DNA from: Patescibacteria group bacterium
GTDB lineage: Bacteria; Patescibacteriota; Microgenomatia; Levybacterales; UBA12049
Assembly (NCBI GenBank): GCA_038062115.1
Contig: JBBTXS010000028.1
Coordinates: 1-39,958 of the forward strand
Direction: 5' to 3'
DNA: 39,958 nt
Positions 7,076 through 33,829 of this stretch are shown here, piece by piece. The translations under genes and the position numbers were made by a program. The first letter of the stretch is position 1. The number at the start of each line of letters is the position of its first letter. A model generated the notes under the pieces. The model worked only from the letters and a program-made list of their open reading frames with translations, made no database searches and was not told where the DNA came from.

Positions 7076-7148
7076 GCGCCCTTAGCTCAATGGACAGAGC
7101 GAGTGGCTTCGGACCACTAGGTTGCGGGTTCGACTCCTGCAGGGCGCG
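7076..7148 (+). tRNA. tRNA-Arg (anticodon TCG)
   Basis: Acceptor GCGCCCT/AGGGCGC, anticodon stem AGTGG/CCACT with loop CTTCGGA, T arm GCGGG-TTCGACT-CCTGC. Confidence 0.88.
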
Positions 7149-7149
7149 C

Positions 7150-18849: not shown

Positions 18850-19500
18850 GGACTTCCTTTATTACTAAAAGGTAGTCGTCGCTTCGCTCCTCCTATTATT
18901 TATATTGCTCGGCCTTCGGCCTCGCTCTATGTATTTTTTGCACAAACGAAAGAAGCGCGATTTTTTAAGTAAAGAGCCGGACTTAAACTCGTTTGATTAT
19001 AGCATATTCCGTATCAACCTACCCACCCGATTATGGTGGCGGCGACCCCGCCTTTGTGCGAGAGGTCGCCCTATGGGGCGACTTGCCCATGTGTTTCTAT
19101 ATTTAGTATCTTGGTACAGTATCTTCCCTGCTTTTATTTATATTTAGTATCTCCTGCAGTCGGCGGGGTGATCCGCTTTTCGCCCCCGCCTTCTTTGTTT
19201 TATCCCTTTCTCTTTCTAGCACCTTCGGTCGCCTCTGGCGACCTTATGAATTCTTGTTGGCTCGCCCCGCAACTATTTCAATTAAAGATATTCCAGCGGG
19301 GCTCGCGATAGTCGGGCACGCTCTTTGCTAGGTTTTGCAATCGTGAAGTCAATCTATCGCGTGCCTTTATCCTGAGTTTATCGAAGGACTCCTTTTAGCA
19401 ACGACTCCATTTTGGGCGGGGGCGGCGGAGCCAGTCACCGACTGGTGCCTGGCGGACCGCCACCAAAAAGAATCGGCCGGAATGGTGGAAATTGGCCGAT
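18850..19500. other. GC-rich, hairpin-dense intergenic region; candidate structured RNA or leader (unidentified)
   Basis: No credible ORF. My count for 19381-19440 is 37/60 G+C, against 23-38% in sampled coding lines. Perfect hairpins at 19065-19082, 19227-19243, 19431-19445, 19264-19270/19296-19302, 19305-19311/19354-19360 and 19162-19168/19184-19190. Confidence 0.4.
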
Positions 19501-19677
19501 GACTTATTAACCGAAGAAGAAATTCTAGACCTAGCCCAGAGAATTAAAATTGCAAAATTAATTCTTGACGGCAAGACTTATGATGAAATTGCAGAAAAAG
19601 TTAAAACTTCAACATCAACAGTTTCGAAGATTGGACAGATTATTAAATATGGTAAGGGTGGATTAAAAAGACTTTAA
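19492..19677 (+). CDS. Short TrpR/YerC-YecD-like HTH protein
   Basis: EEILDLAQRIKIAKLILDGKTYDEIAEKVKTSTSTVSKIGQIIKYG matches the YerC core pattern (..ei..l.qR.eva..L..G.tY.eI....gaStaTIsRv). TTG start; it lacks the roughly 40 N-terminal residues of full-length YerC. Confidence 0.6.
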   Translation: MADDLLTEEEILDLAQRIKIAKLILDGKTYDEIAEKVKTSTSTVSKIGQIIKYGKGGLKRL

Positions 19678-19731
19678 AAAAATAGTCGCTGATGACATCT
19701 CTCGGTTTTAGTTCGCATTAGAAGATAAAAA

Positions 19732-20841
19732 TTATGGAAGACTAACAGTATCTTTAAGTCTTGGGTATAAAATAACATCTCGCACTCTATCTCTACATAG
19801 CGCCCATGCAATAAATCTTTCAATTCCTAATCCAAAACCAGAAGTTGGTTTATAGTTTTTAAGTCTTCTTAAATCAATGTACCACTCATAAGGCTTAGGG
19901 TTTATACCCTGCCTTCTTAAAGATTCATACATTTCGCCTACATTATCTTGTCTTTGGCCACTTCCAACAATTTCTCCTCCAAATGAACCCTTGATAATCG
20001 GAGGAAACAGTAAGTCTGCATTTATAACTTTATTCTCTTTGTAGGGTTTTTGATAAAAAGCTACTCTGTTTCTATCGTAATGATTAACCCAAATAGGAAT
20101 TCCTGTTTTAAGTATTTCCATTAACTTTAATTCTGCTTTGCCTGAAACATCCTGGCCAGATTCGATCTCGTTAATTAAATTTCCATTCCTAGAATCTTTT
20201 AGTATCTCCACTACATTGTCAAACTCCATTTCTTGAAATTTCTTTGCTCGCAATAGTGACTGTAACTTTTTAATTGACATTTTCGAATTAGCACTTAATA
20301 AACTCAAGATATTTGGCATGGACACAAGAGTTTCAGCTAGAAATTTTACATAACCTTCTATTTGTGGCTTTAATTCTCGTAGGGTTCCTGATATTTCCGC
20401 TTCACAATGATAAAACTGATTCAAGTGTTTTTTATCTGGTTTTTCGCCCCTCATTGAAGGTAAATAGCAATAAACTTTCTTAATTCCATTTACAAGAAGA
20501 GGCTCAAAACCAAATTGTGAAGAATCAGTTAAGTAGACATTAAATTTACCAAACTTTAGATTTATCGCTTTCGAATCTGATCCAGGACCCATTGGAGAGG
20601 AAATACTTTGCGTAATCATAAATAAGTCAAGATTATACGCATGTTGCATGTCTCCCCAGTAAATATCACAAGCTAGTTTAATATAATGCCTCAACACAGA
20701 CAAAGCTTGAAAATAAGGTGATTTCGCTACTTCTATATAGTGGGTCTTCCCATCATAGACAGGTAATTTAAAATCATCTCTATCTTTATTAAAATAGTTA
20801 TTGTCAGATTTTTTGATTTTGTTTTTAAAATCGTTACTCAT
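19732..20841 (-). CDS. AsnRS/AspRS-like class IIb aminoacyl-tRNA-synthetase catalytic core without anticodon-binding domain (stand-alone amino-acid adenylating ligase)
   Basis: Motif 2-like SMRGEKPDKKHLNQFYHCEAE (fRaE...rHL.EF..E.E); motif 3 GFGLGIERFIAWAL followed by RDVILYPR (compare AsnRS RDVIPFPR); YLTDSSQFGFE (compare YLTQSPQLY). At 369 aa there is no OB-fold N-domain. 4-bp overlap with the upstream gene. Confidence 0.75.
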   Translation of the reverse strand: MSNDFKNKIKKSDNNYFNKDRDDFKLPVYDGKTHYIEVAKSPYFQALSVLRHYIKLACDIYWGDMQHAYNLDLFMITQSISSPMGPGSDSKAINLKFGKFNVYLTDSSQFGFEPLLVNGIKKVYCYLPSMRGEKPDKKHLNQFYHCEAEISGTLRELKPQIEGYVKFLAETLVSMPNILSLLSANSKMSIKKLQSLLRAKKFQEMEFDNVVEILKDSRNGNLINEIESGQDVSGKAELKLMEILKTGIPIWVNHYDRNRVAFYQKPYKENKVINADLLFPPIIKGSFGGEIVGSGQRQDNVGEMYESLRRQGINPKPYEWYIDLRRLKNYKPTSGFGLGIERFIAWALCRDRVRDVILYPRLKDTVSLP

Positions 20842-21707
20842 GCTCGTTCTCTAATAAAAAATTCTTTTTCTTCTAGGTAAAAATTCTTCCTAAAAAGCGC
20901 AATAAAATATGATAAATATTTATTGTTTTGGGTAAATGTTATCATATAGCCAAGCCATTTTTTATATATTTCTTTTTTAATTTCTTGGCCTAAGCTAGCA
21001 ATATGAGGCTTTTGTAAAAACATAGTTACATATTCTTCTACATCTTTTCTAGATTTATTTTCAAATTTATACTCTTTGAAATAATACAATTCATACTTAT
21101 TATTTGTATTAAAAACATTCAGCCAGTCATTTTTATTGAAATATTTTATTTGAGCACCAATTATCCCACTCACTGCATCTAATACTTGCTCTGGTGGTTT
21201 CTTTCTGTAAAATAATTGGGTAGTTGCTAAAAATCCCCAGGGTTTTAGGACTCTGAAATATTCGCTTACAGCTTTTTTCTTGTTTTCCATAAAGGAAGTG
21301 GCTCCACCACACATCACTAAATCAAAATACCCTTGCTCAAAAGGAATATCATAAGCAGATCCAACTTTAAAAACCACCCTCTTCCTTACGTCTTCAGTAT
21401 CTTTATTCAATGTATAATTTGCTTCATTTACACAACTTTCAGAAATATCTATTCCATAAACTTTGGATTTAGTTATATGAGCAAATTCAAGAGAATTGAA
21501 TCCGGTATTTGAACCAACATCAAGAATTTTACAATTTTGTTCTACAAATGTATTATGAACGATCTCTCTTATGGAGCTCTTTCCACCAGGACAACGATTT
21601 GTTTCTTTTATGAAAGATATAAAGTCCGTATAAGACAAAGATTTGATGTATTCTTTGGTTATTTTATTCATATAACTGACCCTTGACATCATGATGAATT
21701 GAATCAA
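20838..21707 (-). CDS. Class I SAM-dependent methyltransferase
   Basis: Motif I ILDVGSNTGFNSLEFA, motif II YGIDISESCV, FDLVMCGGATSF. ATGA-type 4-bp overlaps with both neighbours. Confidence 0.8.
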   Translation of the reverse strand: MIQFIMMSRVSYMNKITKEYIKSLSYTDFISFIKETNRCPGGKSSIREIVHNTFVEQNCKILDVGSNTGFNSLEFAHITKSKVYGIDISESCVNEANYTLNKDTEDVRKRVVFKVGSAYDIPFEQGYFDLVMCGGATSFMENKKKAVSEYFRVLKPWGFLATTQLFYRKKPPEQVLDAVSGIIGAQIKYFNKNDWLNVFNTNNKYELYYFKEYKFENKSRKDVEEYVTMFLQKPHIASLGQEIKKEIYKKWLGYMITFTQNNKYLSYFIALFRKNFYLEEKEFFIRERA

Positions 21708-22744
21708 AACTCTGCATATATTTTTCTTTTTTTAGAATCAATTCTGACTTTTTTGCCGTAAGGCATTGGAACCTGAGGATCGCTATGTCCAAAATCCAAA
21801 TTTTGAACTACTGGTATGGACTTATTATATTTCCTGACTGTTGTTAGAATTGCGTCTCCCTGTTGTTTACGATATTTATCTTTTTGTTCCTTGCTGTTCT
21901 GCCTATCAAATTCCCAAGCTTTTGGTCTTCCCACTAATATACCTTTCACTCTTTCCAAAATACCTCTTTCTCCTAAAGATCTATAAACTCTATAAACATA
22001 ATTAGCAGTTGGTATTTCTTCTGATGTTTCGGTCATTAAAATAATATTTTCAAAATCTTCTAAAGATGGAATTTCAACACTATGTCTTAGGAGCTCATCT
22101 ATTGATTCTAAACAACCGCCCCAGGTGATTCCTTCAGTATTTTGATCAGCATCCCAAACCCAACCTTCGTTTGGTTCATAAGTTCTTTGTTTTTTTAGAT
22201 TCTCCGTATCACTCCAGTCTAAATCAATGTCGTTATATTCTTTGCTCGCTTCTAGTTCAAATTCGCCTTTTTCAAATAAAGCTAATTTCAAATATTTAAG
22301 GGTGTATTCATGTATTTTTCCTTGCTCTGCAAATTGCGTAAATAAAGCGCCGCCATAATATGATGGTATGCTATTCAACCAAAGAAAATTCATAAAGTGA
22401 GTATTATCACTGTAGCCAAAGTAGGGTTTTGGATTACTTTTAAATGGCTCGGCTGGCAAATTCTTAATGTAGGTTATTTGATCGTCTCCTCCAAGAGAAG
22501 ATATAACACCTTTAATCTCTTTATCTTCAAAAGCTGCAATTAAATCTTTAGCTCGTTCTTCTTTGGAAGCTCCAACCTTTTTAGTAGTCGGAAATTCTAC
22601 TGGTTCTAATTCAAAAATCTCTCGTAGTCGTTTCAATCCTAGCTCATAAACATGAGGCCATTTTCCTGGAGCAGCAAATGATGGCGACAGAATAGCAACT
22701 TTATCACCAGGTTTAATTTTATTCATCAAGAGAAATTGTCTCAT
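21704..22744 (-). CDS. S66 serine peptidase (LD-carboxypeptidase LdcA / microcin C7 immunity MccF family)
   Basis: PGDKVAILSPS N-terminus, nucleophile motif GYSDNTHF, acidic ETSEE, His motif DFGHSDPQVPMPYG (Ser-Glu-His triad intact). Likely start is ATG 22726 (MNKIKPGD). Confidence 0.8.
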   Translation of the reverse strand: MRQFLLMNKIKPGDKVAILSPSFAAPGKWPHVYELGLKRLREIFELEPVEFPTTKKVGASKEERAKDLIAAFEDKEIKGVISSLGGDDQITYIKNLPAEPFKSNPKPYFGYSDNTHFMNFLWLNSIPSYYGGALFTQFAEQGKIHEYTLKYLKLALFEKGEFELEASKEYNDIDLDWSDTENLKKQRTYEPNEGWVWDADQNTEGITWGGCLESIDELLRHSVEIPSLEDFENIILMTETSEEIPTANYVYRVYRSLGERGILERVKGILVGRPKAWEFDRQNSKEQKDKYRKQQGDAILTTVRKYNKSIPVVQNLDFGHSDPQVPMPYGKKVRIDSKKRKIYAEF

Positions 22745-22770
22745 GTCTTGTATTGCAATTTTACATCAAA

Positions 22771-23844
22771 ATGTACCAAAAACCAAATAATTGTTATAAT
22801 ACTAAAAACATGCCGAACCTAAATAAACACGACCTTGTTCTTTTTAAATCTAGTGAATTTCTAGGTTTTGAAAAATTTCTTGAAAAAAACTATCAGTTTA
22901 GAATAATTTCCACTGAGTATCCGCCGTATGTTTCGTTTACTTCCAGAAAAGCTATTATTCACACCGATAAGGGCACATTTTTCCTTAAAGAAAAACCTGA
23001 ATATTCTAGCGATAAACTTTCCTTAAATAAATCAGGTAGATTTCAAAGATATGCAAGTTTCAAGCTAGATGTTGTACCTAAAATTAGGCTTACAAAAAAA
23101 GATGAGTGCTTTGTTATGTGGAAAAGCAGGTTTTACTTTTTGACTGAGTATAAAAAAGGCAGAGTCTTTAATGGGTCTGATCAAGATGTTAACTCAATGT
23201 TAAAAGCTCTCAATAAATTGCAAAAAATTGGCAAAGAATTTACAAGTAAAAAAGACGTACCGCTTGATGTTCTAAAGCGGATTGAGTCATATGAAGTAGC
23301 CAAACTGACTCCTTTAATTAAAAAATATGCTAGATCAAAAAAAGAATCTTCAATTTATGGAAAAATAATTAAGTGTTTAGAAATGCTGAAAAAAGAATAT
23401 ATTTCTTTGCCCAAAAAGGAATACTTAATGAGCCATGGTGATTTTATTATTTTTAACATTATATTTAGAAATAACGAAGTCGTTGCAATAAACGATTTTG
23501 ATAATGCAAAAAAACTACCAAAATTACATGATTTAGCCGAATTTTTAGTTTCATCTACAATGTTCAACTATATTGGTTCACTAACAAATATGAAACTTCC
23601 AGTCGTTCTTGAGCCACAAAAAAGTAAATTTAAATTAATTATGAAGTCATATGTACGAGATTTTTCTTTGTCCAAAAAAGATGTTGTCTTACTCAGTACA
23701 ATAGCAGAAATTATCTGGCTATGGACATTATGTTTATCTGTCCTTAAGGGCGATTATAGAATTTCGGATTTAGCAAAAGTAGTGAGAAGAGTAGAGAAAA
23801 GAAGCTTATCTAACTTGATTAAAAACACTGCTGCTTATTTTTAG
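22771..23844 (+). CDS. APH/choline-kinase-fold phosphotransferase (paralog 1)
   Basis: Brenner motif SHGDFIIFN and metal-binding INDFDN; lysine motif FFLKEKPEYS. Paralogous to 27236..28366. The start is uncertain (TTG 22753, ATG 22771 or ATG 22810). Confidence 0.75.
   Translation: MYQKPNNCYNTKNMPNLNKHDLVLFKSSEFLGFEKFLEKNYQFRIISTEYPPYVSFTSRKAIIHTDKGTFFLKEKPEYSSDKLSLNKSGRFQRYASFKLDVVPKIRLTKKDECFVMWKSRFYFLTEYKKGRVFNGSDQDVNSMLKALNKLQKIGKEFTSKKDVPLDVLKRIESYEVAKLTPLIKKYARSKKESSIYGKIIKCLEMLKKEYISLPKKEYLMSHGDFIIFNIIFRNNEVVAINDFDNAKKLPKLHDLAEFLVSSTMFNYIGSLTNMKLPVVLEPQKSKFKLIMKSYVRDFSLSKKDVVLLSTIAEIIWLWTLCLSVLKGDYRISDLAKVVRRVEKRSLSNLIKNTAAYF
22792..22800 (+). promoter_or_regulatory. Candidate extended -10 promoter element in the divergent intergenic region
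   Basis: TGTTATAAT (TGnTATAAT) lies 9 nt upstream of ATG 22810 of the kinase ORF, between the divergent S66 and kinase genes. Confidence 0.3.
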
Positions 23845-23950
23845 ACATGACTTGCTTAAGTACAAATCAAAATTAAAGTGACCTTAAATTTTAGATAAAT
23901 ATGCAGCGCCTTGCTAAAGCACTATCTTTGGATTAAAATCATTGTTAAAT

Positions 23951-25630
23951 ATGACAATTCCTTTTTCCGAACTACTCCAAAAATATCTTTTATCCGTAGG
24001 AATAAATAAAATGTACGGAATTGTTGGCAGAGAAGAGAGTTCTTTGACGTTTAACACATTAGAAGATTTTGAATTTATTTTAACTAGACATGAAATGACA
24101 GCTGGTGTTATGGCCACTGCCATTTCAAGGTTCACAAGAAGCCCGCAGGTCTGTTTTGGAACGCTTGGACCAGGTATTACTAACTATATGACTGCTCTTG
24201 CTACAGCAACGCTTGATCGTTACCCATTGATTTTGATTGTAGCTCAATTAGAGACGCCATATATTATATATAATGACATGCATCAATGTGTTGACAATGT
24301 ATCTATAGCAAAACCTTTATCAAAATATGCATACGAGCTCAAAAGTCCCAATGAGCTTAAATCTGCTCTTGAGTCAGCATTGAAAGCTTCAATGACTTTT
24401 CCATTTGGGCCATCTGTGATATCAATTCCTATTGATATCTTGTCTTCTGATCTAGAGATTGATTCTGCAACAGCAACAAGCTTGAATAAGGATGTCATTC
24501 TCCCTTCAATATCTGAAGATTATGATATTAAAAATTTAGTAGAAGAGGCCGCTAAGATTATAAAATCGAGTAAAAACCCTTTAATAATAGCTGGTGATGC
24601 AATAGTTAAAACTGAGGGAACGATAAGTAAAGTTAAAAAATTCTCTGAAAATACAAACATTCCTGTAATTACAACGTATTCCGCAAAGGGAGTTATAAAT
24701 AGAAATTCACCATTAAATTATGGTGTTTTAAGTTCCTATATAGATTCAGTGGTCAAAGAAAATGTGAACGAAAAAATATTTAATAAAGCAGATACTCTTA
24801 TTTTTATTGGTTATGATTTATGCGAAAGACATCCATTTTTATGGCCTAGTAATAGTATTCCCAAGGTTTTGATAAATATAAATTCATATCATAATAATGT
24901 TCATAAGGCACTAAACCCGCACGTCAATATAATATCCCGCTTAGATAAAAGCATTGATTTACTAAAAGATTATTTAAAGGGTTATAAAAATAAAAAACTT
25001 ATCGAGATAAATAAGATCAATAATAAAATTAATAAATTACTTAAAGATAAAACTCACTACAAAGACGGAATAACTCATCCTCAAATTTTAAATTCTTTGA
25101 ATGATCATTTTAATGAGGATTATATTTTAGCTAATGACATAGGAATGCACAGGCATTTGTCTAGCATTTTCTTTAAAAATGATAAACCTGAATATTACGT
25201 GACTTCGGAAGGATTATCTTCATTTGGAACAGGTTTATCATTAGGAATGGGAGCTAAGATTGCAAACCCTAATAAGCCCGTTGTTGTGATTGCAGGTGAT
25301 GGTGGATTTCACTCCAATGACGGGGATATTGAAACAGTAGTTAGACTTGGTTTGAAAATTTTAATCGTGGTTTTAAACAGTAGCTCAAACGCATTAATAG
25401 AGAGATATCAATTAAAAGGAAAGTACAAAAATATGAATAAAAAAAATACTTCATTTGGCAAAGTTGATTTTGATTTATTGGCAAAGGCAAATGGCTGTCA
25501 GTCTGATAAAGCGCAAAACATTGAGGAATTTAATAAATTACTTAAAAAATATGATAATATTGACGGACCTTTTTTAATTGAAATACCCATTTATTATCCA
25601 CAACACTATGTAAATGAATATTCAAAATAG
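23951..25630 (+). CDS. Thiamine-diphosphate-dependent enzyme, acetolactate-synthase-like three-domain type
   Basis: N-domain GTLGPGITN; ThDP-binding motif GDGGFHSNDGDIETVVRLGLKILIVVLNSSSN (GDG...N). About 560 aa. Confidence 0.8.
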   Translation: MTIPFSELLQKYLLSVGINKMYGIVGREESSLTFNTLEDFEFILTRHEMTAGVMATAISRFTRSPQVCFGTLGPGITNYMTALATATLDRYPLILIVAQLETPYIIYNDMHQCVDNVSIAKPLSKYAYELKSPNELKSALESALKASMTFPFGPSVISIPIDILSSDLEIDSATATSLNKDVILPSISEDYDIKNLVEEAAKIIKSSKNPLIIAGDAIVKTEGTISKVKKFSENTNIPVITTYSAKGVINRNSPLNYGVLSSYIDSVVKENVNEKIFNKADTLIFIGYDLCERHPFLWPSNSIPKVLININSYHNNVHKALNPHVNIISRLDKSIDLLKDYLKGYKNKKLIEINKINNKINKLLKDKTHYKDGITHPQILNSLNDHFNEDYILANDIGMHRHLSSIFFKNDKPEYYVTSEGLSSFGTGLSLGMGAKIANPNKPVVVIAGDGGFHSNDGDIETVVRLGLKILIVVLNSSSNALIERYQLKGKYKNMNKKNTSFGKVDFDLLAKANGCQSDKAQNIEEFNKLLKKYDNIDGPFLIEIPIYYPQHYVNEYSK

Positions 25631-25726
25631 ATTGCTATAACAACTTTAATCAGGCATCTTAACGCATTATTATAGGTGTCTAGGTTGGGATAAGGACAAA
25701 AAAATGATATGCTTGCTTCATTGAAT

Positions 25727-25858
25727 ATGGTAATTTCGTTAAAGTCAGTTAAAAATCAGGAAAAGGTAAATAATGTAAAAAGAGACATTGCGAAACTTGA
25801 CAAATTTTTAATTTTTTTGAATAAAATGGCAAAATTAAAGAAAAAAAAGAATTCATGA
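25727..25858 (+). CDS. Hypothetical 43-aa lysine-rich small ORF, stop overlapping the NDK-like start (ATGA)
   Basis: I translated it as MVISLKSVKNQEKVNNVKRDIAKLDKFLIFLNKMAKLKKKKNS; TGA 25856-25858 overlaps ATG 25855-25857. No homology evidence. Confidence 0.2.
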   Translation: MVISLKSVKNQEKVNNVKRDIAKLDKFLIFLNKMAKLKKKKNS

Positions 25859-26547
25859 GAAAACCAGAAATATTCCAGCAAATAGAAGCCCCACAAGCTT
25901 TTTCTACTCGAAGAAGAGCAAGTGAAGCTATACGTGGATTACAAGAGGGGTCGATAAATTTAGACCAACTAGAACAGATAAGATTAGTAAAAATTAAAGC
26001 ACTATTGGAGCATCCTGAGTTGCAAAATTTAATAGATGAAAATAAAATTACACTTGGAATTATTAAGCCTCATGTAAATGAAGGTAAAAATCTTCCAAAA
26101 GATGACGACGAAGCGGCTAAAGTATTGCTAAATGAAATAAGCGAAGAAAACGTAGTTTTTACTTTTTCTACACAACTAACTGGAAATCAAGTTGAAAGTT
26201 TTTATAGCGATGTAAAACAGAAATATTCTCAGATCACTACCAATGCACAGGGTCAAACAGTTTGGGATACTATTTATAATTTTGGACAATCAGGACCATT
26301 AACATTTCTTCTGATTTACAGAGAAGAGGGCAATGCTATTGAATGGTGGAGAAATAAGATGGGAAAGACAAGGCCAAACGAAGCAGATCCTGAAAGCATT
26401 AGGGGTAAATATGCTTTACAGGAAAAACTACCTAATAATTTAACTCATGGTAGCGATTCAGCTGAGTCTGTAAGAAAAGAAATTAAAGAATTAGGCAATA
26501 TTGTTGAGGCAATTTTAGAAACAAATGTTCCACATATAAATCAATGA
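25855..26547 (+). CDS. Divergent nucleoside-diphosphate kinase with about 60-aa N-terminal extension
   Basis: TLGIIKPHV (compare ..IKPD.V), SGPLTFL, ADPESIRGKYA and the active-site motif NLTHGSDSAESVRKEI (N..HGSDS.eSa.kEI). Confidence 0.7.
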   Translation: MRKPEIFQQIEAPQAFSTRRRASEAIRGLQEGSINLDQLEQIRLVKIKALLEHPELQNLIDENKITLGIIKPHVNEGKNLPKDDDEAAKVLLNEISEENVVFTFSTQLTGNQVESFYSDVKQKYSQITTNAQGQTVWDTIYNFGQSGPLTFLLIYREEGNAIEWWRNKMGKTRPNEADPESIRGKYALQEKLPNNLTHGSDSAESVRKEIKELGNIVEAILETNVPHINQ

Positions 26548-26556
26548 CTTTCCTCA

Positions 26557-27144
26557 TTAGAAAGTTGTTATTTTTTCCCTTAAGTTGCTCGGTAAAGATT
26601 TTAACTCGTCAGGATTTAAAAAACCACTAGAAAGAAAAATTGCACTCACCCTATCAAGATCTAGTGGATAAGGTACAGTAACTATTCCTGTAGTGGGTTG
26701 GTACGTCACTGAGTGTTTAAACAGTATTGTTTCTGCCATCAAACCATCGCTTAGACGTTCTATCCTGAGATTATGTTGCCTGCCTATTCGTTTCATTTGC
26801 TCCGTATAGCTTTCCGATGGTATAGATAGCCAATCACCATCTATAGTATCTCTATCAAAGAGATAATATGCCCCAGACTTGTAATGCATAAGGGCTGTTA
26901 AACAATCTCCTAGAAACACACCATAGCTACCCATTTGACCAGATTGCGGCTGGAAGTTTCGTTGATTTATGTCTAATAAACGATTTTTGTTAGATTCATC
27001 TCTTAATAACCATCTCTGTGGAATTTTAGCATTTGGGTTAGGATTTTTTGGTATATCTAGTCCATTCTCATCGAGCACCCTTTTTAGGGGTAACATTCTA
27101 TCTCTATGATTTTCTAAAAATTTTCTTTTTGATTCTGCTGTCAT
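26557..27144 (-). CDS. Orphan protein; weak Cys/His papain-like (C39/BtrH-like) hydrolase pattern
   Basis: QPQSGQMGSYGVFLGDCLTALMHYKSG resembles the Q...C..a..M..y.G nucleophile context. A later ILFKHSVTY...VTVPYPLD is a possible His/Asp. This is pattern-level evidence only. Confidence 0.3.
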   Translation of the reverse strand: MTAESKRKFLENHRDRMLPLKRVLDENGLDIPKNPNPNAKIPQRWLLRDESNKNRLLDINQRNFQPQSGQMGSYGVFLGDCLTALMHYKSGAYYLFDRDTIDGDWLSIPSESYTEQMKRIGRQHNLRIERLSDGLMAETILFKHSVTYQPTTGIVTVPYPLDLDRVSAIFLSSGFLNPDELKSLPSNLREKITTF

Positions 27145-27235
27145 ATGGTAAGATATTATCTGAATATAAAAACGTAAGTATTATAGATAAGATTATCTTA
27201 AAGTTCAATAAGTGTGGCTCAATATTATTATATTT

Positions 27236-28366
27236 CTATAATATTGTTGGTATATTTTTTTCTACAAAGGCTTGGAAAGATAATGCTTCTAATACATCGC
27301 GATAACTAAAATCACCCCTAACAATTCCCAGAGACATAATTTTTGCCCATCGTATGTTCATTTCGCCAACTAACTCGGCTTTTTCTTTCGGAGACAAGGC
27401 TGGTGAATTTGCTGCATAGCCCTTGATAAAAGCTTTTGCTTTTTCTAGATTTAATGACGTTGTGATAGGCTTTCGCAAGGTTGAAGTAGTTCCTGCATAA
27501 CTAAGTCCATCGCAAAATGAGATTACAGCGCCTGCAAGATCTCTTATTCTAGGACGATAGTCAACATTATCAAAATCATTTACAGCAACAACAGTGCCGT
27601 TTTTATCATAAACTAAATTAAATGGCGCATAATCTGCATGATTTACAAGGTATGGCACATCCTGATCCATCTGTCCACTGTACTTATCAACTATATCTTT
27701 TAAAGCCAGGACTGCTTTTTGCTTCCATTCATCATCTTGCGCTCCTTTTAATTGGTCAGCCATGTTAATAAACTGTAAGGTATCTTCTCCCGCATATCTT
27801 TTACGGAGATCTGGAAAATCAAATTCTTTAGATAGAAGGTGTATCTTGCCAAGTGTAGCTCCTGCATTTGCAGTATCTTGTATACTACCATTAAATATTC
27901 TTCCTTCCTTAAATTCTGTAGTTAAAAAGTGTGTTTCTCCAATTTGGAGATATGGATTTCCAGATTTTGTATTAATAATTCTTGGGACAAAGTCTGTTCT
28001 ATGAGAAAGAAATTGCTGAAATCGCGCAGAAAGAGAAAGATTATATGGATTACAAGAATATTTGGGCTTTTCTTTTATAAAGTATTTGTGTTTTCCATCA
28101 TCTATAATAACTTTCCTACTTGTTGTCGAAAAAGCAGTTGGAAATTCTGAGCCAAAGTTACTGTCTATACCATATTCTTCGCTCATAATTTTTTTTAAAG
28201 AATCATTTACTCCTAATAGAAGAAGGTCTGAGGAGTTTAAATCTCTTCCATGTACAGCTGGTTTCTTCTCTATTTCTGATGTCTGATTTGGTGCAATAAT
28301 CTCGGCTCCAATTTTAGATTTACCAGGTGCTGGAAGACCTAGCAGTTTAGGAAAATGCTCATTCAT
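27236..28366 (-). CDS. APH/choline-kinase-fold phosphotransferase (paralog 2)
   Basis: NHADYAPFN and VNDFDN motifs. YFIKEKPKYS, FLTTEFKEGRIFNGS and STTSRKVII mirror FFLKEKPEYS, FLTEYKKGRVFNGS and FTSRKAII of paralog 1. Confidence 0.75.
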   Translation of the reverse strand: MNEHFPKLLGLPAPGKSKIGAEIIAPNQTSEIEKKPAVHGRDLNSSDLLLLGVNDSLKKIMSEEYGIDSNFGSEFPTAFSTTSRKVIIDDGKHKYFIKEKPKYSCNPYNLSLSARFQQFLSHRTDFVPRIINTKSGNPYLQIGETHFLTTEFKEGRIFNGSIQDTANAGATLGKIHLLSKEFDFPDLRKRYAGEDTLQFINMADQLKGAQDDEWKQKAVLALKDIVDKYSGQMDQDVPYLVNHADYAPFNLVYDKNGTVVAVNDFDNVDYRPRIRDLAGAVISFCDGLSYAGTTSTLRKPITTSLNLEKAKAFIKGYAANSPALSPKEKAELVGEMNIRWAKIMSLGIVRGDFSYRDVLEALSFQAFVEKNIPTIL

Positions 28367-28372
28367 AGAAAT

Positions 28373-28831
28373 TTATTTTTTGGGAAACGCCACATCTAAA
28401 GCGTGGAAAAGTAATGGGTATATAAAAAGTGTTCGTGCCCTTACTTCATTAACCCATTCCAGCTCTGCTGCTACTTTGCCCTCTTCGACACTGTATCTTT
28501 CGAACTCCCCTAACCACTCGGAGACCTCGTAAATATAAAAAATTGACTTTCTTTGTTCTACGGTAAATTCTGATAAATATTCGTATTTTATCGGTGTTAT
28601 CTTTCCTCTGAATTCTTCATCAATTTCCCTTCGTAAAGCAACCTCTCTATAATCTCCTTTGTCTCCGGCTGCTATTCTATCTCTCATTTCTATTGAGCCA
28701 TTCGGAATATATGGCTCAGGAGGTTCTTTATCAAATCTGTGCTCAATCAGTAGCTGATTGTTTCTTTTAAACACAAACATTACTGCCTCCGATTTACCAT
28801 CCCTATAAGAGTATTGTGGTTTTTCTTTCAT
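28373..28831 (-). CDS. Nudix-like hydrolase (non-canonical Nudix box)
   Basis: ALRREIDEEFRG fits the REUxEExGU half of the Nudix box. The preceding G...E part is expanded (GSIEMRDRIAAGDKGDYRE). Confidence 0.55.
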   Translation of the reverse strand: MKEKPQYSYRDGKSEAVMFVFKRNNQLLIEHRFDKEPPEPYIPNGSIEMRDRIAAGDKGDYREVALRREIDEEFRGKITPIKYEYLSEFTVEQRKSIFYIYEVSEWLGEFERYSVEEGKVAAELEWVNEVRARTLFIYPLLFHALDVAFPKK

Positions 28832-29047: not shown

Positions 29048-29884
29048 ATGAAAAAACCTATAGGAAAACGTCTTGATGTAATCAAAGGGTTGCTTTCAGG
29101 AGAAATCAATATTTCTAAGGCAACAAATCTTTTATCTTGTTCACGAAGAAGTATTGAGAGATACAAAAAGGCATTTGTCCAAAAAGGAGAGGCTGGATTA
29201 AAAGATCATAGACATAGCAATTATCGAAAACTCTCCGAGAAACAAAAAGAAGATATTATTGCTTTAAAACAAAAGGATAGATGGCGTTCGGCGCGAAACA
29301 TTCGAGATGAGCTAAAACTTTCTCTAAGCGAACATCAGGTTCAAAGAATTTTAGTTGCTAAAGGATTAGGAAGGGAAAATTTAAAGAGAGTAAAAGCGAT
29401 TATCCGTTTTGAAGCAACAGCTCCCAATGATCTGTGGCAAACAGATATTATGGGAAAGATTGATTTTCCAAATATTAGTATCCTTTACCTTATCGCAACT
29501 CTTGATGACCATAGTAGATTTGTACCAGCAGGAAGATGGTTTAAAACTCAAGGAAAGATGAATGTGTTTCAAATCTGGTATGAATCTCTTTCTAAATGCG
29601 GACTTCCTGATAAGATGCTTCAAGATGAGGGATCACAATACAAAGCAAGAGCAAGGTTTGGTACAGCAGATTACGAGTGGTATGCAAAACAGGCAGGTAT
29701 CAAGCTCATCTGGGCAAACAGGGCGGAAACTAAAGGAAAAATAGAGAGATTCTGGAAGTTTGTACAGGGAGATTTTGTGCCATCCGTCATCAATGCGAAA
29801 ACCATAGAGGAGGTAAACGGCGCTTTTAAAATATGGCTTGCTAATACAATGGGTCTAGATAACTTTAGAACGGTTTTTCTCTAA
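29048..29884 (+). pseudogene. IS481/IS3-like DDE (rve) transposase, 3' end disrupted by IS1595 insertion
   Basis: Strong SD (AAAGGAGGTGA) before the ATG; HTH N-terminus; DDE residues in WQTDIMG, LQDEGSQY and KGKIERFW. The expected W..YN..RPH tail is replaced after KIWLANT, exactly at the left IR of the inserted element. Confidence 0.7.
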
Positions 29885-31437: not shown

Positions 31438-32565
31438 ACATTTGCGACATTTCAGATAGTGGCAAGTAGTACCGGAGTATCTACGAAAGCATACCCAATA
31501 TTTAGTAGAATCAAAGGCTGGAAGGAGGCGCTAAGTATGCTTTCCAGTCTAAGAGGGTACTCTTTATCTGAAGTTGCAAAGAAAAGAATGGAGATTATTA
31601 ACTTTTATGATGAGTTTGGAGAAGAGGCAACAATGAAAGCTTTTGGAGCAGACCGTAAGGTTATTAGTCGTTGGAGAAAGCGATTGGCAAAAAGTGGAGG
31701 AAGATTAGAATCTTTAATTCCTTACTCAACAAAACCTAAAACTGTAAGGAGAGTAAGCTATAGTCAAAAGATTGTTGATTTTATCAAACAATACAGAAAA
31801 GATCATCCAAGAACTGGTAAGGAGAAAATTAAAATAGAGCTTGATGAACATTGCGCAAATGTGGGAATCAAAACTGTATCGGAGTCAACAATTGGCAATA
31901 TCATCAAAAGGCATAAATTCTTTTTCCAAAAGTCTGGCAGAATCTATCATAACCCAAACTCTAAATGGGCTAGAAATGAGGCTAAAAAGAAAAAGAGACT
32001 TAGGGTTAAACATCCGCCAAAACTCGATAATTTTGGCCATATACAATCAGATGCTGTACAAAGAATAACTGATGGGATAAAAGATTATTTCATTTCTGCT
32101 ATTGATGCCAAGATGAAATTTATCTTAACCTTAAATTACAAAAGTTTAACTAGCCGTAACAATAAAGACTTTTATCAAAGATTTAAAAGTGTTTATCCAG
32201 GAAGAATTAAAGACTGGCAGTCAGATAATGGTTCGGAGAATCTTGGGGAGTTTGACCAACAGTTAACAGAGGATCAAATTCCCCATCTTTTCTCATATCC
32301 TAGATGTCCTAAGATTAATACATACATTGAAAGATACAACAGAACTGTTCAAGAGGAATTCATTGACAACAACTTAGACATTATTCATGACAAAATACTT
32401 TTTAATCAAAAACTGGTCGATTACCTAATTTGGTACAATTCTAAAAGGCCACATAAATCATTGGGTCTTAAAAGCCCGTTACAATATCTTCTTGAGAAAG
32501 GAGGTATGTCGCAAATGTCCTTGACTTATACAATCCCTGTACAATTTACGAATGATATGGTATAG
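31438..32565 (+). mobile_element. IS481/IS3-like insertion sequence with apparently intact DDE transposase (CDS 31459..32565)
   Basis: 13-bp inverted repeat ACATTTGCGACAT (31438-31450) / ATGTCGCAAATGT (32506-32518). The 368-aa ORF has HIQSDAV, DWQSDNGSE, YIERYNRTVQEEF and WYNSKRPHKSLG (rve core). The ORF reads through the right IR by 47 nt. Confidence 0.7.
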
Positions 32566-32596: not shown

Positions 32597-33829
32597 ATGT
32601 CTTTCTCAAGCCATGAAAGGGTACAACCACAACCTATGAGTAGTTTACTAAAAGCAAAGTTAGAAGTACCCTTGGAAAATCCAAATCTTCTAATGCCGCT
32701 CAAGTTCGAGGTGTCTTCTCCTGAAAAGATTGAAAGACTTTTGTCTGTCAACGACCTCACCTTGCCAACCGAAGAGAGACAAGAAAGAAATATAGTTGGT
32801 CGAGTTTACGACCAAGTGATTAGCAAATTAAGAGAACATAATTTCCCCGATATACGCATTATAAGAGGTGACCCTATTGTAAAAGCAAGAGACAATTTTG
32901 ACAGGCTGTTGTTTACTCCTGGGAATCCAGGAAGGTCATCTACATATACAAGGTATACTGACGAAGATCATGTTCTTAGGACTCATACATCAGCACTAAT
33001 CCCGTCTACGTTTTCTAAATTAGAAAAAGACATAGATCGTTCAACTCTCGTGTTTCCTGGCTTAGTTTATAGGCGCGACGTTATTGACCCTAGACACTTA
33101 GATGTTTTTCATCAGATAGACGTATGGACACTTCAAAAAAATAGTGAATATGGACGGACAACCAAAGAAGATTTATTAGAATTAGCAAAAACAGTTTTTG
33201 AAGCGGCATGTCCAGATGCAAAGATGATTGTTTATGAGGCTAAACATCCATATACAGTTGATGGTATTGAAGTTTACGCTGGAATTGATGGCAAAGAAAT
33301 AGAAGTTCTTGAGGCAGGCCTTACCCATCCAGAGGTGTTAAGAAATGCCGGTATAGATCCAGAGCAGTACTCTGGGTTAGCGTTAGGTATGGGGATAGAA
33401 CGGCTAATTATGGCTAGGAAAAACTTGCCAGATATAAGATTGATACGATCTGTTGATCCACGCGTTATTAGACAAATGACAAATATGGAAAAGTTTATAA
33501 ACGTATCTAATCAGCCAGCAATGTCTCGAGATATGTCATATTGCGTTAGTAAAAACGACTCAGAAGAAGACATTTGCGAAGCAATCAGAAGTGTCTTTGG
33601 AGATAATTCTGACTTATTAGAGCAAGTGGATATCCTAGAAAGAACTCCTTTCGATAAGTTGACCCCAATTGCAAGAAAGAGGCTTGGGGCAACAATAGAC
33701 AAAGATAATGTTTTAGTAAGAATTATCTTACGGCATCCCGACAAGACTTTAACTAAAAAAGAGGCTGCTGACTTATATTCTATGACATATCCAAAGCTTC
33801 ATCAGGGTACTACAAAAGGATATGGATAA
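32597..33829 (+). CDS. Monomeric (mitochondrial-type) phenylalanyl-tRNA synthetase: class IIc catalytic core plus C-terminal FDX-ACB anticodon-binding domain
   Basis: NFDRLLFTPGNPGRS, LRTHTSA, motif 2 GLVYRRDVIDPRHLDVFHQID and motif 3 GLALGMGIERLIMARKNLPDIRLI. Then QPAMSRDMSYCV...LEQVDILERT...VRIILRHPDKTLTKKEA, which parallels the FDX-ACB domain of PheT and mitochondrial PheRS. 410 aa. Confidence 0.75.
   Translation: MSFSSHERVQPQPMSSLLKAKLEVPLENPNLLMPLKFEVSSPEKIERLLSVNDLTLPTEERQERNIVGRVYDQVISKLREHNFPDIRIIRGDPIVKARDNFDRLLFTPGNPGRSSTYTRYTDEDHVLRTHTSALIPSTFSKLEKDIDRSTLVFPGLVYRRDVIDPRHLDVFHQIDVWTLQKNSEYGRTTKEDLLELAKTVFEAACPDAKMIVYEAKHPYTVDGIEVYAGIDGKEIEVLEAGLTHPEVLRNAGIDPEQYSGLALGMGIERLIMARKNLPDIRLIRSVDPRVIRQMTNMEKFINVSNQPAMSRDMSYCVSKNDSEEDICEAIRSVFGDNSDLLEQVDILERTPFDKLTPIARKRLGATIDKDNVLVRIILRHPDKTLTKKEAADLYSMTYPKLHQGTTKGYG

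Follow-up and report, generated by a model that had tools for sequence, protein, structure and literature searches.

What would a member of the Patescibacteria make with an aminoacyl-tRNA synthetase (aaRS) paralogue that has no anticodon-binding domain and is encoded next to an S-adenosylmethionine (SAM)-dependent enzyme and a serine hydrolase? The question is raised by three adjoining genes in a 39,958-nt stretch of DNA from a Patescibacteria group bacterium (Microgenomatia; GenBank assembly GCA_038062115.1, contig JBBTXS010000028.1, positions 1 to 39,958), which is referred to below as the window. Judged by sequence comparison, the three products are homologues of AgnA, AgnB1 and AgnC5, encoded on the agrocin 84 plasmid pAgK84. 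We propose, with a probability of roughly 0.6, that this triad is the core of a pathway for an aminoacyl-nucleotide antimetabolite of the agrocin 84 or microcin C type, directed against aaRSs. The genes are arranged as follows.

19732 to 20841, minus strand: AgnA-like ligase, 369 aa, with PF00152 as its sole Pfam match
20838 to 21671, minus strand: AgnB1/MccD-like class I SAM-dependent enzyme (hereafter the methyltransferase), 277 aa from a conserved ATG at 21671, matching Pfam Methyltransf_11, 25 and 31
20838 to 21707, minus strand: longest open reading frame (ORF) of the methyltransferase gene in the ORF listing, 289 aa
21704 to 22744, minus strand: MccF/AgnC5-like S66 serine hydrolase, 346 aa, matching PF02016 and PF17676
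22745 to 22809, no strand: 65-nt intergenic region from which the triad operon and a plus-strand accessory operon diverge

Gene boundaries of the triad

A first-pass annotation, made from the sequence alone, had read three consecutive minus-strand genes for an S66 hydrolase, a class I SAM-dependent enzyme and a tRNA-synt_2 protein, and the ORFs and Pfam domains agree with it. It had also placed a 4-bp overlap at both junctions. One of these stands, as the methyltransferase stop and the ligase start share ATGA at 20838-20841. The other, at 21704-21707, would need a TTG start, which lacks a Shine-Dalgarno sequence. Conservation at the N-terminus of the methyltransferase (MNKITKEYIKSLSYTDF) starts 12 codons past this TTG, at ATG 21671, which has AAGGG upstream and is the point at which the orthologues in loci L002, L015 and L001 (L numbers denote ligase loci) start as well. 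Because ATG 21671 is the true start, a 32-nt spacer separates the S66 and methyltransferase genes. The methyltransferase-ligase junction of relatives is a gap of 1-4 nt, not an overlap. The three genes clearly form one operon; tight organisation is all that holds of the 'stoichiometric' co-expression suggested initially, which over-reads the arrangement. Upstream of ATG 22810, in the divergent region, lies a TGTTATAAT-like extended -10 element; taken as a whole, a promoter and terminator scan of 19300-23100 did no better than chance, its site count not exceeding that of shuffled sequence.

Correspondence with the agrocin 84 cluster

When plasmids were searched by tblastn with the methyltransferase, the notable matches were an Exiguobacterium plasmid and pAgK84, where the matching gene is agnB1, located between agnA and agnB2. 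All three triad proteins have a counterpart on pAgK84: the ligase is 33% identical to AgnA over 333 aa (164 bits, E 7e-52), the methyltransferase 32% identical to AgnB1 over 276 aa (E 1e-56) and the S66 hydrolase 28% identical to AgnC5 over 342 aa (E 9e-36). The arrangement had at first been thought undescribed. This is mistaken, because agnA is a precedent: pAgK84 carries agnA, which encodes a truncated AsnRS homologue, the adjacent SAM enzyme gene agnB1 and the MccF-like agnC5 (PMC8323819, PMC4392301). A role in forming the nucleotide N-acyl phosphoramidate bond has been proposed for AgnA (PMC8323819), no role has been assigned to the SAM enzyme AgnB1, and agrocin 84-like clusters have so far been reported in Ensifer and Actinobacteria alone (PMC8323819, PMC4392301).

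The likeness extends to organisation. Ligase and methyltransferase are adjacent on one strand, as are agnA and agnB1; AgnA, like the window ligase, has no anticodon-binding domain, AgnB1 is MccD-like, and AgnC5 is an MccF-like S66 protein. The two systems differ in that the window triad is contiguous, whereas agnC5 lies about 7 kb from agnA, and in that the window module is chromosomal in a Patescibacterium, whereas agn is plasmid-borne in Rhizobium rhizogenes K84. They differ also in their remaining genes. BLASTP of all agn proteins against the window returned AgnA, AgnB1 and AgnC5 alone, apart from a weak match from an unrelated plasmid ABC ATPase, and found no window homologue of agnC1-C4, C6, C7, D, E, F, the exporter gene agnG or the immunity LeuRS gene agnB2. 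Two APH-family kinases, a thiamine diphosphate (ThDP) enzyme, a nucleoside diphosphate kinase (NDK)-like protein and a NUDIX hydrolase are found in the window instead.

An AsnRS-derived ligase

How close is the ligase to known enzymes of its class? It had been expected to match PF00152 without PF01336, alongside a Peptidase_S66 (PF02016) neighbour, and the profile searches returned exactly this: tRNA-synt_2 (PF00152) covers residues 99-362, and tRNA_anti-codon (PF01336) does not match. The AlphaFold2 (AF2) model (predicted local distance difference test score (pLDDT) 84.6, predicted template modelling score (pTM) 0.89) has helical residues 1-65 and no oligonucleotide-binding (OB) barrel, so that the absence of the anticodon-binding OB fold noted at the outset is borne out by both approaches. 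So is the retention of catalytic residues: motif 2 (M-R131-G-E133) and motif 3 (G-F-G-L-G-I-E-R342), R131, E133 and R342 among them, are invariant in 20 family members and align with the FRxE and GxGxxR of full-length AspRS and LysRS. Invariant E147 and R297 align with Glu228 and Arg364 of Pyrococcus horikoshii AsnRS, which Iwasaki and colleagues in 2006 reportedly identified as recognising asparagine. By these alignments, the ligase keeps the class II ATP-binding motifs together with an AsnRS-like pocket.

The nearest solved relatives are AsnRS catalytic domains, with P. horikoshii 1x54 at 111 bits by sequence and at the top of a Foldseek search with the AF2 model (E 3e-21, query-normalised TM-score (TMq) 0.76). 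By the same BLASTP method that gave 164 bits for AgnA, E. coli AsnRS scores 105 bits. BLASTP, hidden Markov model (HMM) scores and fold ranking together give the order AgnA > AsnRS > AspRS > AS-AR > LysRS > EpmA. A loop of the form SxSSPMGxGSDS and the motif 3 variant T(S/A)GFGLGIERFI are common to the ligase, AgnA and the plasmid proteins described below, and are not found in AsnRS, AspRS or LysRS.

The AsnRS-derived archaeal asparagine synthetase AS-AR of Pyrococcus abyssi (3p8t/3rex; PRK06462 models) resembles the window ligase in being an AsnRS catalytic domain with no anticodon-binding domain, and the best NCBIfam match of the ligase falls in the PRK06462 group named 'asparagine synthetase A'. 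The ligase differs from it in the family-specific SSPMGxGSDS loop, in its obligatory linkage to the S66 and methyltransferase genes, and in similarity, since it scores 34-37 bits against solved AS-AR (1nnh, 3p8t) as opposed to 111 against AsnRS and 164 against AgnA; AS-AR comes at rank 48 by fold (3rex among the matches). By score, the ligase is no equivalog of AS-AR; grouping with AS-AR was one half of what the first-pass annotation had named as refuting its proposal. No NCBIfam equivalog cutoff was reached: the ligase scored 166 bits against 389 for NF005055, 115 against 322 for NF005053, 64 against 368 for NF005052, 162 against 343 for the asnS model TIGR00457 (of which the catalytic part alone was covered) and 15 against 264 for the EpmA (PoxA/GenX) model NF006828. 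AgnA itself best matches the same models NF005055 and NF005053, likewise under their cutoffs.

The family comprises 891 matches, with members of 369-372 aa that are about 55-85% identical and carry only the name 'amino acid--tRNA ligase-related protein'. RefSeq names the plasmid AgnA-like ligases (L087 12938-13963, L088 10825-11904, L089 12894-13925 and L086 19646-20707) 'asparagine synthetase A'. Because of the cluster contexts, this name is probably misleading, and systematically so.

The methyltransferase and the S66 hydrolase

The methyltransferase has as its best PDB match MccD (5fcd; E 9e-20 over its full length), followed at E 1e-9 by a match to the Rossmann core alone; it is 28% identical to E. 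coli MccD over 174 aa (E 1e-24). By these comparisons it is MccD-like. The statement that MccD sits beside MccF in microcin C clusters, made in support of the initial proposal, thus holds for the identity of the enzyme, but not for the gene order, as MccE lies between the two in E. coli.

The S66 hydrolase matches Bacillus anthracis BA3275 best among PDB entries (E 1e-46), then MccF-like proteins (E 1e-22 to 1e-17) and LdcA at E 1e-13 or weaker; it reaches 43 bits against a cutoff of 378 for the LdcA equivalog NF008424 and is 24% identical to E. coli MccF over 346 aa. S112 aligns with the MccF nucleophile S118, and W177 with MccF W186, which stacks on adenine in the MccF-microcin complex (PMC8323819). 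S112, E239 and H320 are invariant in our alignment (A4), and W177 is kept in at least 95% of 75 sequences. Trp177 was considered as a discriminator between MccF and LdcA and dropped, since E. coli LdcA (22% identical) aligns a Trp there too. For this reason, our assignment uses the scores together with an insertion of about 30 residues that flanks W177, is found in MccF, AgnC5 and the window protein and is missing from E. coli LdcA. The hydrolase keeps the Ser-Glu-His triad and the equivalent of MccF Trp186, and by the scores and the insertion it is MccF-like rather than LdcA-like.

The resemblance to microcin C (mcc) clusters therefore comprises a SAM enzyme homologous to MccD and an S66 protein homologous to MccF with the Ser118 and Trp186 equivalents; some related loci of the Candidate Phyla Radiation (CPR) add a pyridoxal phosphate (PLP) decarboxylase like the MccE N-terminal domain, and some a HIT hydrolase of the MccH family. 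The window departs from mcc in having neither the MccC pump of the major facilitator superfamily (MFS) nor the MccE acetyltransferase domain, and in its adenylating enzyme, a class II aaRS paralogue with a fold unrelated to MccB. E. coli MccB is annotated as a ThiF family protein, and no ThiF domain, as in a ThiF/E1-type MccB, was found in the cluster ORFs scanned with Pfam. A ribosomal precursor peptide of the MccA kind, which ends in Asn, was not seen either, no search aimed at it having been made. That the ligase takes the place of an MccB-type adenylyltransferase, as originally suggested, is a reasonable inference from these sequences.

Distribution and linkage of the module

Is this association of genes peculiar to the window? 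Scanning one genome per species, we confirmed 113 ligase loci in 185,579 species genomes, which makes the ligase gene a sporadic one and not a core gene. Nearly all of these loci belong to Patescibacteria, of many classes; the exceptions include plasmid2 of Calothrix parasitica NIES-267 and a Calothrix metagenome-assembled genome. The ORFs of 80 fetched loci were clustered and neighbours counted within 6 kb of the ligase at 82 distinct ligase loci. An S66 gene is present in 74 of the 82, a methyltransferase gene from one of three related families in 70, and both in 64, most exceptions being contig ends. Linkage of the triad is thus far beyond chance, and the alternative raised initially, an LdcA with no linkage to the ligase elsewhere, fails on the 74 loci with a nearby S66 gene.

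Beyond the triad, a fourth slot is filled by one of three families, never two together (f3, f4 and the APH kinase family f7, in loci L004-L085). Family f3 (385 aa, no Pfam match) occurs in 25 loci, the AlaRS-catalytic-domain paralogue f4 in 23 and the APH kinase in 10. By eye, f3 shows motifs like those of HisRS; a PDB search with its profile found nothing, HisRS being at E 0.26, and by hhalign it has no similarity to AgnC1 or to the ProRS-like protein of the Xenorhabdus cluster described below, which in turn share a weak local match alone (E 2e-5 over 85 aa). Some CPR loci carry the PLP decarboxylase mentioned above, a homologue (E 1e-16) of the N-terminal domain of MccE, and occasional further additions are AdoMet decarboxylase, HIT, HD and NUDIX hydrolases, an ATP-grasp enzyme, a radical SAM enzyme and RpiB.

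Plasmid clusters and neighbouring synthetase genes

The module is also found on plasmids of cultured bacteria. On the Xenorhabdus bovienii CS03 megaplasmid (NZ_FO818638.1), ligase, methyltransferase and S66 genes, in the same gene order as in many CPR loci, accompany genes for a nucleoside phosphorylase, VOC and GloA proteins, leuS, a ProRS-like ligase-related protein and an MFS protein. Peribacillus psychrosaccharolyticus (NZ_CP068052.1) and Exiguobacterium sp. Helios (NZ_CP053558.1) combine an AlaRS-related protein, methyltransferase, ligase, S66, a 595-aa AlaRS and an MFS protein, to which the Exiguobacterium cluster adds sugar-nucleotide enzymes, an ATP-grasp enzyme and a deoxynucleoside kinase (dNK). 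Plasmid2 of Calothrix parasitica NIES-267 (AP018229.1) carries ligase, methyltransferase and S66 genes, with neither exporter nor aaRS among the raw ORFs scanned. The window ligase is 32% identical to that of Exiguobacterium and 58% to that of Calothrix, and the methyltransferase is 33-39% identical to the Xenorhabdus, Exiguobacterium and Peribacillus versions. Unlike the window, which has no extra full-length aaRS and no certain exporter, these last three clusters each encode a full-length LeuRS or AlaRS together with an MFS exporter. The exporter and the extra aaRS are the usual marks of an aaRS-inhibitor cluster with self-resistance through a second copy of the target, the part that agnB2 plays for agrocin 84. 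In the searchable literature we found none of the Xenorhabdus, Exiguobacterium, Peribacillus and Calothrix clusters.

Synthetase genes also adjoin the module in CPR bacteria. In L002/L006 a bona fide AspRS, which scores 602 bits where the cutoff is 443, separates the S66 gene from the rest of a window-type cluster, which continues past AspRS in the order APH-NUDIX-ThDP-APH-methyltransferase-ligase, and an AspRS stands beside the cluster in L001. The L002 AspRS (1017-2429), of 470 aa and bacterial type, matches its model in two stretches and apparently has no GAD insertion. Next to the S66 gene, or immediately after it, other loci have divergent LysRS paralogues of 431-462 aa, which score 231-276 bits where the cutoff is 468. 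Their positions are as follows.

L046, 13153-14448: divergent LysRS paralogue
L047, 12925-14313: divergent LysRS paralogue
L055, 12984-14306: divergent LysRS paralogue
L054, 2622-3935: divergent LysRS paralogue

In L046 and L047 a bona fide LysRS adjoins the divergent one. These paralogues could be resistant copies of the target or additional ligases. The AlaRS of the Exiguobacterium cluster (L087 20018-21805, 595 aa) is 53% identical to a CPR AlaRS (L051 16762-18690), which sits two genes from the module; this degree of identity hints that an aaRS gene travels with the module.

Accessory genes and surroundings of the triad

Across the divergent intergenic region begins a set of further genes; an ABC transporter, listed last, lies on the other side of the triad.

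22810 to 23844, plus strand: APH-family kinase 1, 344 aa (PF01636; the longest ORF starts at 22753)
23942 to 25630, plus strand: acetolactate-synthase-like ThDP enzyme, 562 aa (Pfam TPP_enzyme_N, M and C)
25855 to 26547, plus strand: NDK-domain protein, 230 aa, with an N-terminal extension of about 100 aa (PF00334 over residues 105-211)
26557 to 27144, minus strand: 195-aa protein with no Pfam or NCBIfam match and an orthologue in L015
27236 to 28366, minus strand: APH-family kinase 2, 376 aa (PF01636), with orthologues in L001, L002, L011 and L015
28373 to 28831, minus strand: NUDIX hydrolase, 152 aa (PF00293, a weak match of 21.3 bits), with orthologues in L015 and L076
16136 to 18477, minus strand: ABC transporter, ATPase and ABC_tran_2 permease by Pfam, just past tRNA-His

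The accessory set from 22810 to 28831 is syntenic in L015, L001, L002 and L011. Orthologues of APH kinase 1, 37-69% identical, lie beside the module in L001, L002, L015, L031, L009 and L008, and this is the family that excludes f3 and f4 and is excluded by them. The ThDP enzyme, which falls under every NCBIfam equivalog cutoff (best 304 bits against 509), is syntenic in the closest relatives alone (L001, L002, L011 and L015), and the NDK-domain protein has an orthologue in L015 alone. L001, L002, L007, L011 and L031 have a NUDIX gene in the vicinity of the module. The ABC transporter is a possible exporter whose membership in the module is uncertain; in L052 a homologue of its ATPase is the gene immediately downstream of the ligase, and L053 has one close by.

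The 40-kb window as a whole has the look of a Patescibacteria chromosome, with a GC content of 30-43%, 11 tRNA genes and the housekeeping genes for BipA, MgsA and an L,D-transpeptidase. The cluster has a GC fraction of 0.30-0.32, compared with 0.35-0.38 in its flanks, and is bordered by tRNA-His and a GC-rich spacer on one side and by two insertion sequence (IS)/integrase ORFs on the other. The latter, transposase/integrase ORFs at 29048-29884 and 31459-32565 on the plus strand with rve and rve_3 as well as helix-turn-helix (HTH) domains, directly follow the cluster and are consistent with a mobile or rearranged island. The spacer at 18860-19490, which runs from tRNA-His towards the 3' end of the triad operon, is non-coding and 43-55% GC; on the minus strand it folds far better than shuffled sequence (z = -6.1), with z = -3.0 for the plus strand. 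It matches nothing in Rfam at E <= 1, is not repeated in the other loci or the rest of the window, and may be an unclassified structured RNA. Next to it, a 61-aa YerC/TrpR-like ORF (19492-19677, plus strand) matches just positions 26-80 of an 88-position model; probably the gene is truncated or its start is set wrongly. At a distance from the cluster, an 841-aa LPG_synthase_TM and DUF2079 membrane protein is encoded at 7090-9615 (plus strand); its longest ORF overlaps tRNA-Arg at 7076-7149, which means that the true start is further downstream. The 410-aa product of 32597-33829 (plus strand) combines a PheS class II core with an FDX-ACB domain and passes the NCBIfam model 'PheS-related mystery ligase SrmL' (NF051887) with 367 bits against a cutoff of 300. 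SrmL lies about 4 kb from the cluster, past the two IS/integrase ORFs, and has no homologue near the ligase in other loci.

What might the module make?

We envision that the pathway would make a stable mimic of an aminoacyl-adenylate that inhibits aminoacyl-tRNA synthetases. The ligase would use ATP to adenylate an Asn- or Asp-like (carbox)amide or acid substrate, giving a nucleotide of the acyl-AMP type; an N-acyl phosphoramidate, like those of agrocin 84 and processed microcin C, would be the most plausible form. The MccD/AgnB1-like enzyme would add a methyl or a 3-amino-3-carboxypropyl group from SAM to the nucleotide core, and the relatives with an MccE-like PLP decarboxylase or AdoMet decarboxylase point to aminopropylation. 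The S66 enzyme would hydrolyse the acyl-N bond of the product, either protecting the producer, as MccF does, or as a step of biosynthesis. The two APH kinases, the ThDP enzyme, the NDK-like protein and the NUDIX hydrolase would tailor or recycle the nucleotide or the acyl part. Our best guess for the target is AspRS, because a bona fide AspRS lies inside or beside the same type of cluster in L002 and L001.

Several points weigh against this proposal. The functions of the module enzymes, AgnA included, are assigned by sequence, and a review describes the agrocin 84 pathway itself as unknown (PMC8323819). BLASTP found none of the remaining 14 agn genes in the window; also missing are an AgnB2-like extra full-length aaRS and any full-length class IIb aaRS, SrmL past the two IS elements being the sole other aaRS-like gene; and the window is without a certain exporter. 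The S66 protein is only distantly related to those of the plasmid clusters (21% identity with Xenorhabdus), and the AspRS and LysRS neighbours may simply be housekeeping copies. The pocket of the ligase is invariant, and the CPR ligases are 50-85% identical, whichever aaRS is nearby, a poor fit to a ligase that chooses a variable amino acid. Finally, Patescibacteria have small genomes with few known secondary-metabolite clusters.

Might the triad serve ordinary metabolism instead? Were the ligase an AS-AR/AsnA-like enzyme (Asp + ammonia + ATP -> Asn), the S66 protein an LdcA of murein recycling and the methyltransferase unrelated, one could account for the name of the best NCBIfam model ('asparagine synthetase A', NF005055, 166 bits), which PGAP gives to the plasmid homologues too, for AS-AR being a domain-less AsnRS paralogue as well, for the LdcA family to which S66 proteins belong and for the AspRS genes near several loci. 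Yet the scores fall far under the AS-AR (166 against 389) and LdcA (43 against 378) cutoffs, solved AS-AR gives 37 bits by sequence and rank 48 by fold, and AgnA, too, best matches 'AsnA' models. Together with a triad linked in 64 of 82 loci, found on plasmids with exporters and extra aaRS genes and sporadic among genomes (113 of 185,579), this makes a housekeeping role very improbable. Another possibility is that the ligase, independently of tRNA, transfers Asn or Asp to a macromolecule or the cell envelope, as when cross-bridges are added to the stem peptides of peptidoglycan, with the S66 enzyme trimming or erasing the residue and the methyltransferase decorating the product. EpmA, which acts on elongation factor P (EF-P), and GluQRS, which acts on tRNA, are precedents for macromolecule modification by an aaRS paralogue that has no anticodon domain. 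Peptide stems are substrates of S66 enzymes, little is known of CPR envelopes, and second ligase-like genes (AlaRS-like, f3, LysRS-like) could add further residues. We nevertheless consider this quite improbable, given 15 bits to the EpmA model, a methyltransferase that is specifically MccD/AgnB1-like, locus neighbourhoods in which no EF-P, lysine aminomutase, Mur or Fem genes recur, and recurring neighbours that are nucleotide handlers (NUDIX, HIT, HD, NDK, nucleoside phosphorylase and dNK).

Alternatively, the product might be an intracellular nucleotide metabolite, used for signalling, as a cofactor or for storage and not as a weapon, with the S66 protein as its turnover enzyme. Many CPR loci indeed have no exporter or extra aaRS within 10 kb, the ligase is 50-85% identical across classes, and synthetase and hydrolase form an obligatory pair. 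In cultured bacteria, however, the plasmid clusters that hold the module also encode MFS exporters and duplicate aaRSs, and a patchy, plasmid-borne distribution fits accessory functions; we regard this possibility as rather unlikely. An anti-phage role was considered as well and found no support, as the PADLOC defence models gave a generic methyltransferase-domain match alone.

Many mcc clusters are not known to have MccF; since the S66 gene is near-obligatory here and the ligase pocket invariant, we doubt that the S66 protein is an immunity enzyme alone. Conceivably, in a variant of the antimetabolite proposal, ligase and S66 enzyme form a two-enzyme unit for the N-P bond: the ligase would adenylylate the asparagine carboxamide nitrogen, directly or via a succinimide as MccB does, and the MccF-like enzyme would cut the Asp-N bond to release adenosine 5'-phosphoramidate. 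A variable, mutually exclusive partner would then acylate this nitrogen and thereby set which aaRS is poisoned, the candidates being the AlaRS-like ligase, f3, the divergent LysRS, the ProRS-like ligase or, in the window, the APH kinase; the MccD-like enzyme would cap the phosphate. We offer this scheme as speculation that is unlikely to be correct. If true, it would supply the missing chemistry of agrocin 84 and describe modular, programmable aaRS inhibitors of episymbiotic CPR bacteria.

Significance

As to the antimetabolite pathway itself, its kind is already known from agrocin 84. What appears to be new is the triad as the invariant core of a broad cluster family, Patescibacteria as its main reservoir, and the accessory set of the window (two APH kinases, ThDP, NDK-like and NUDIX proteins), which is unlike that of every described relative; no paper in the searchable literature mentions agrocin together with Patescibacteria or with Xenorhabdus. 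A core of AgnA, AgnB1 and the MccF-like AgnC5 is kept in at least 80 species-level genomes and several plasmids, and the rest of the clusters varies. The question of how the acyl-phosphoramidate bond is made is thereby narrowed to three small soluble enzymes, which can be tested in cultured carriers of the module (Xenorhabdus, Exiguobacterium, Peribacillus, Calothrix and strain K84). To our knowledge, Patescibacteria are not noted for antibiotics. Our findings suggest that these genome-reduced bacteria commonly carry a module for a tRNA-synthetase poison, which, if true, would bear on their dealings with hosts and competitors.

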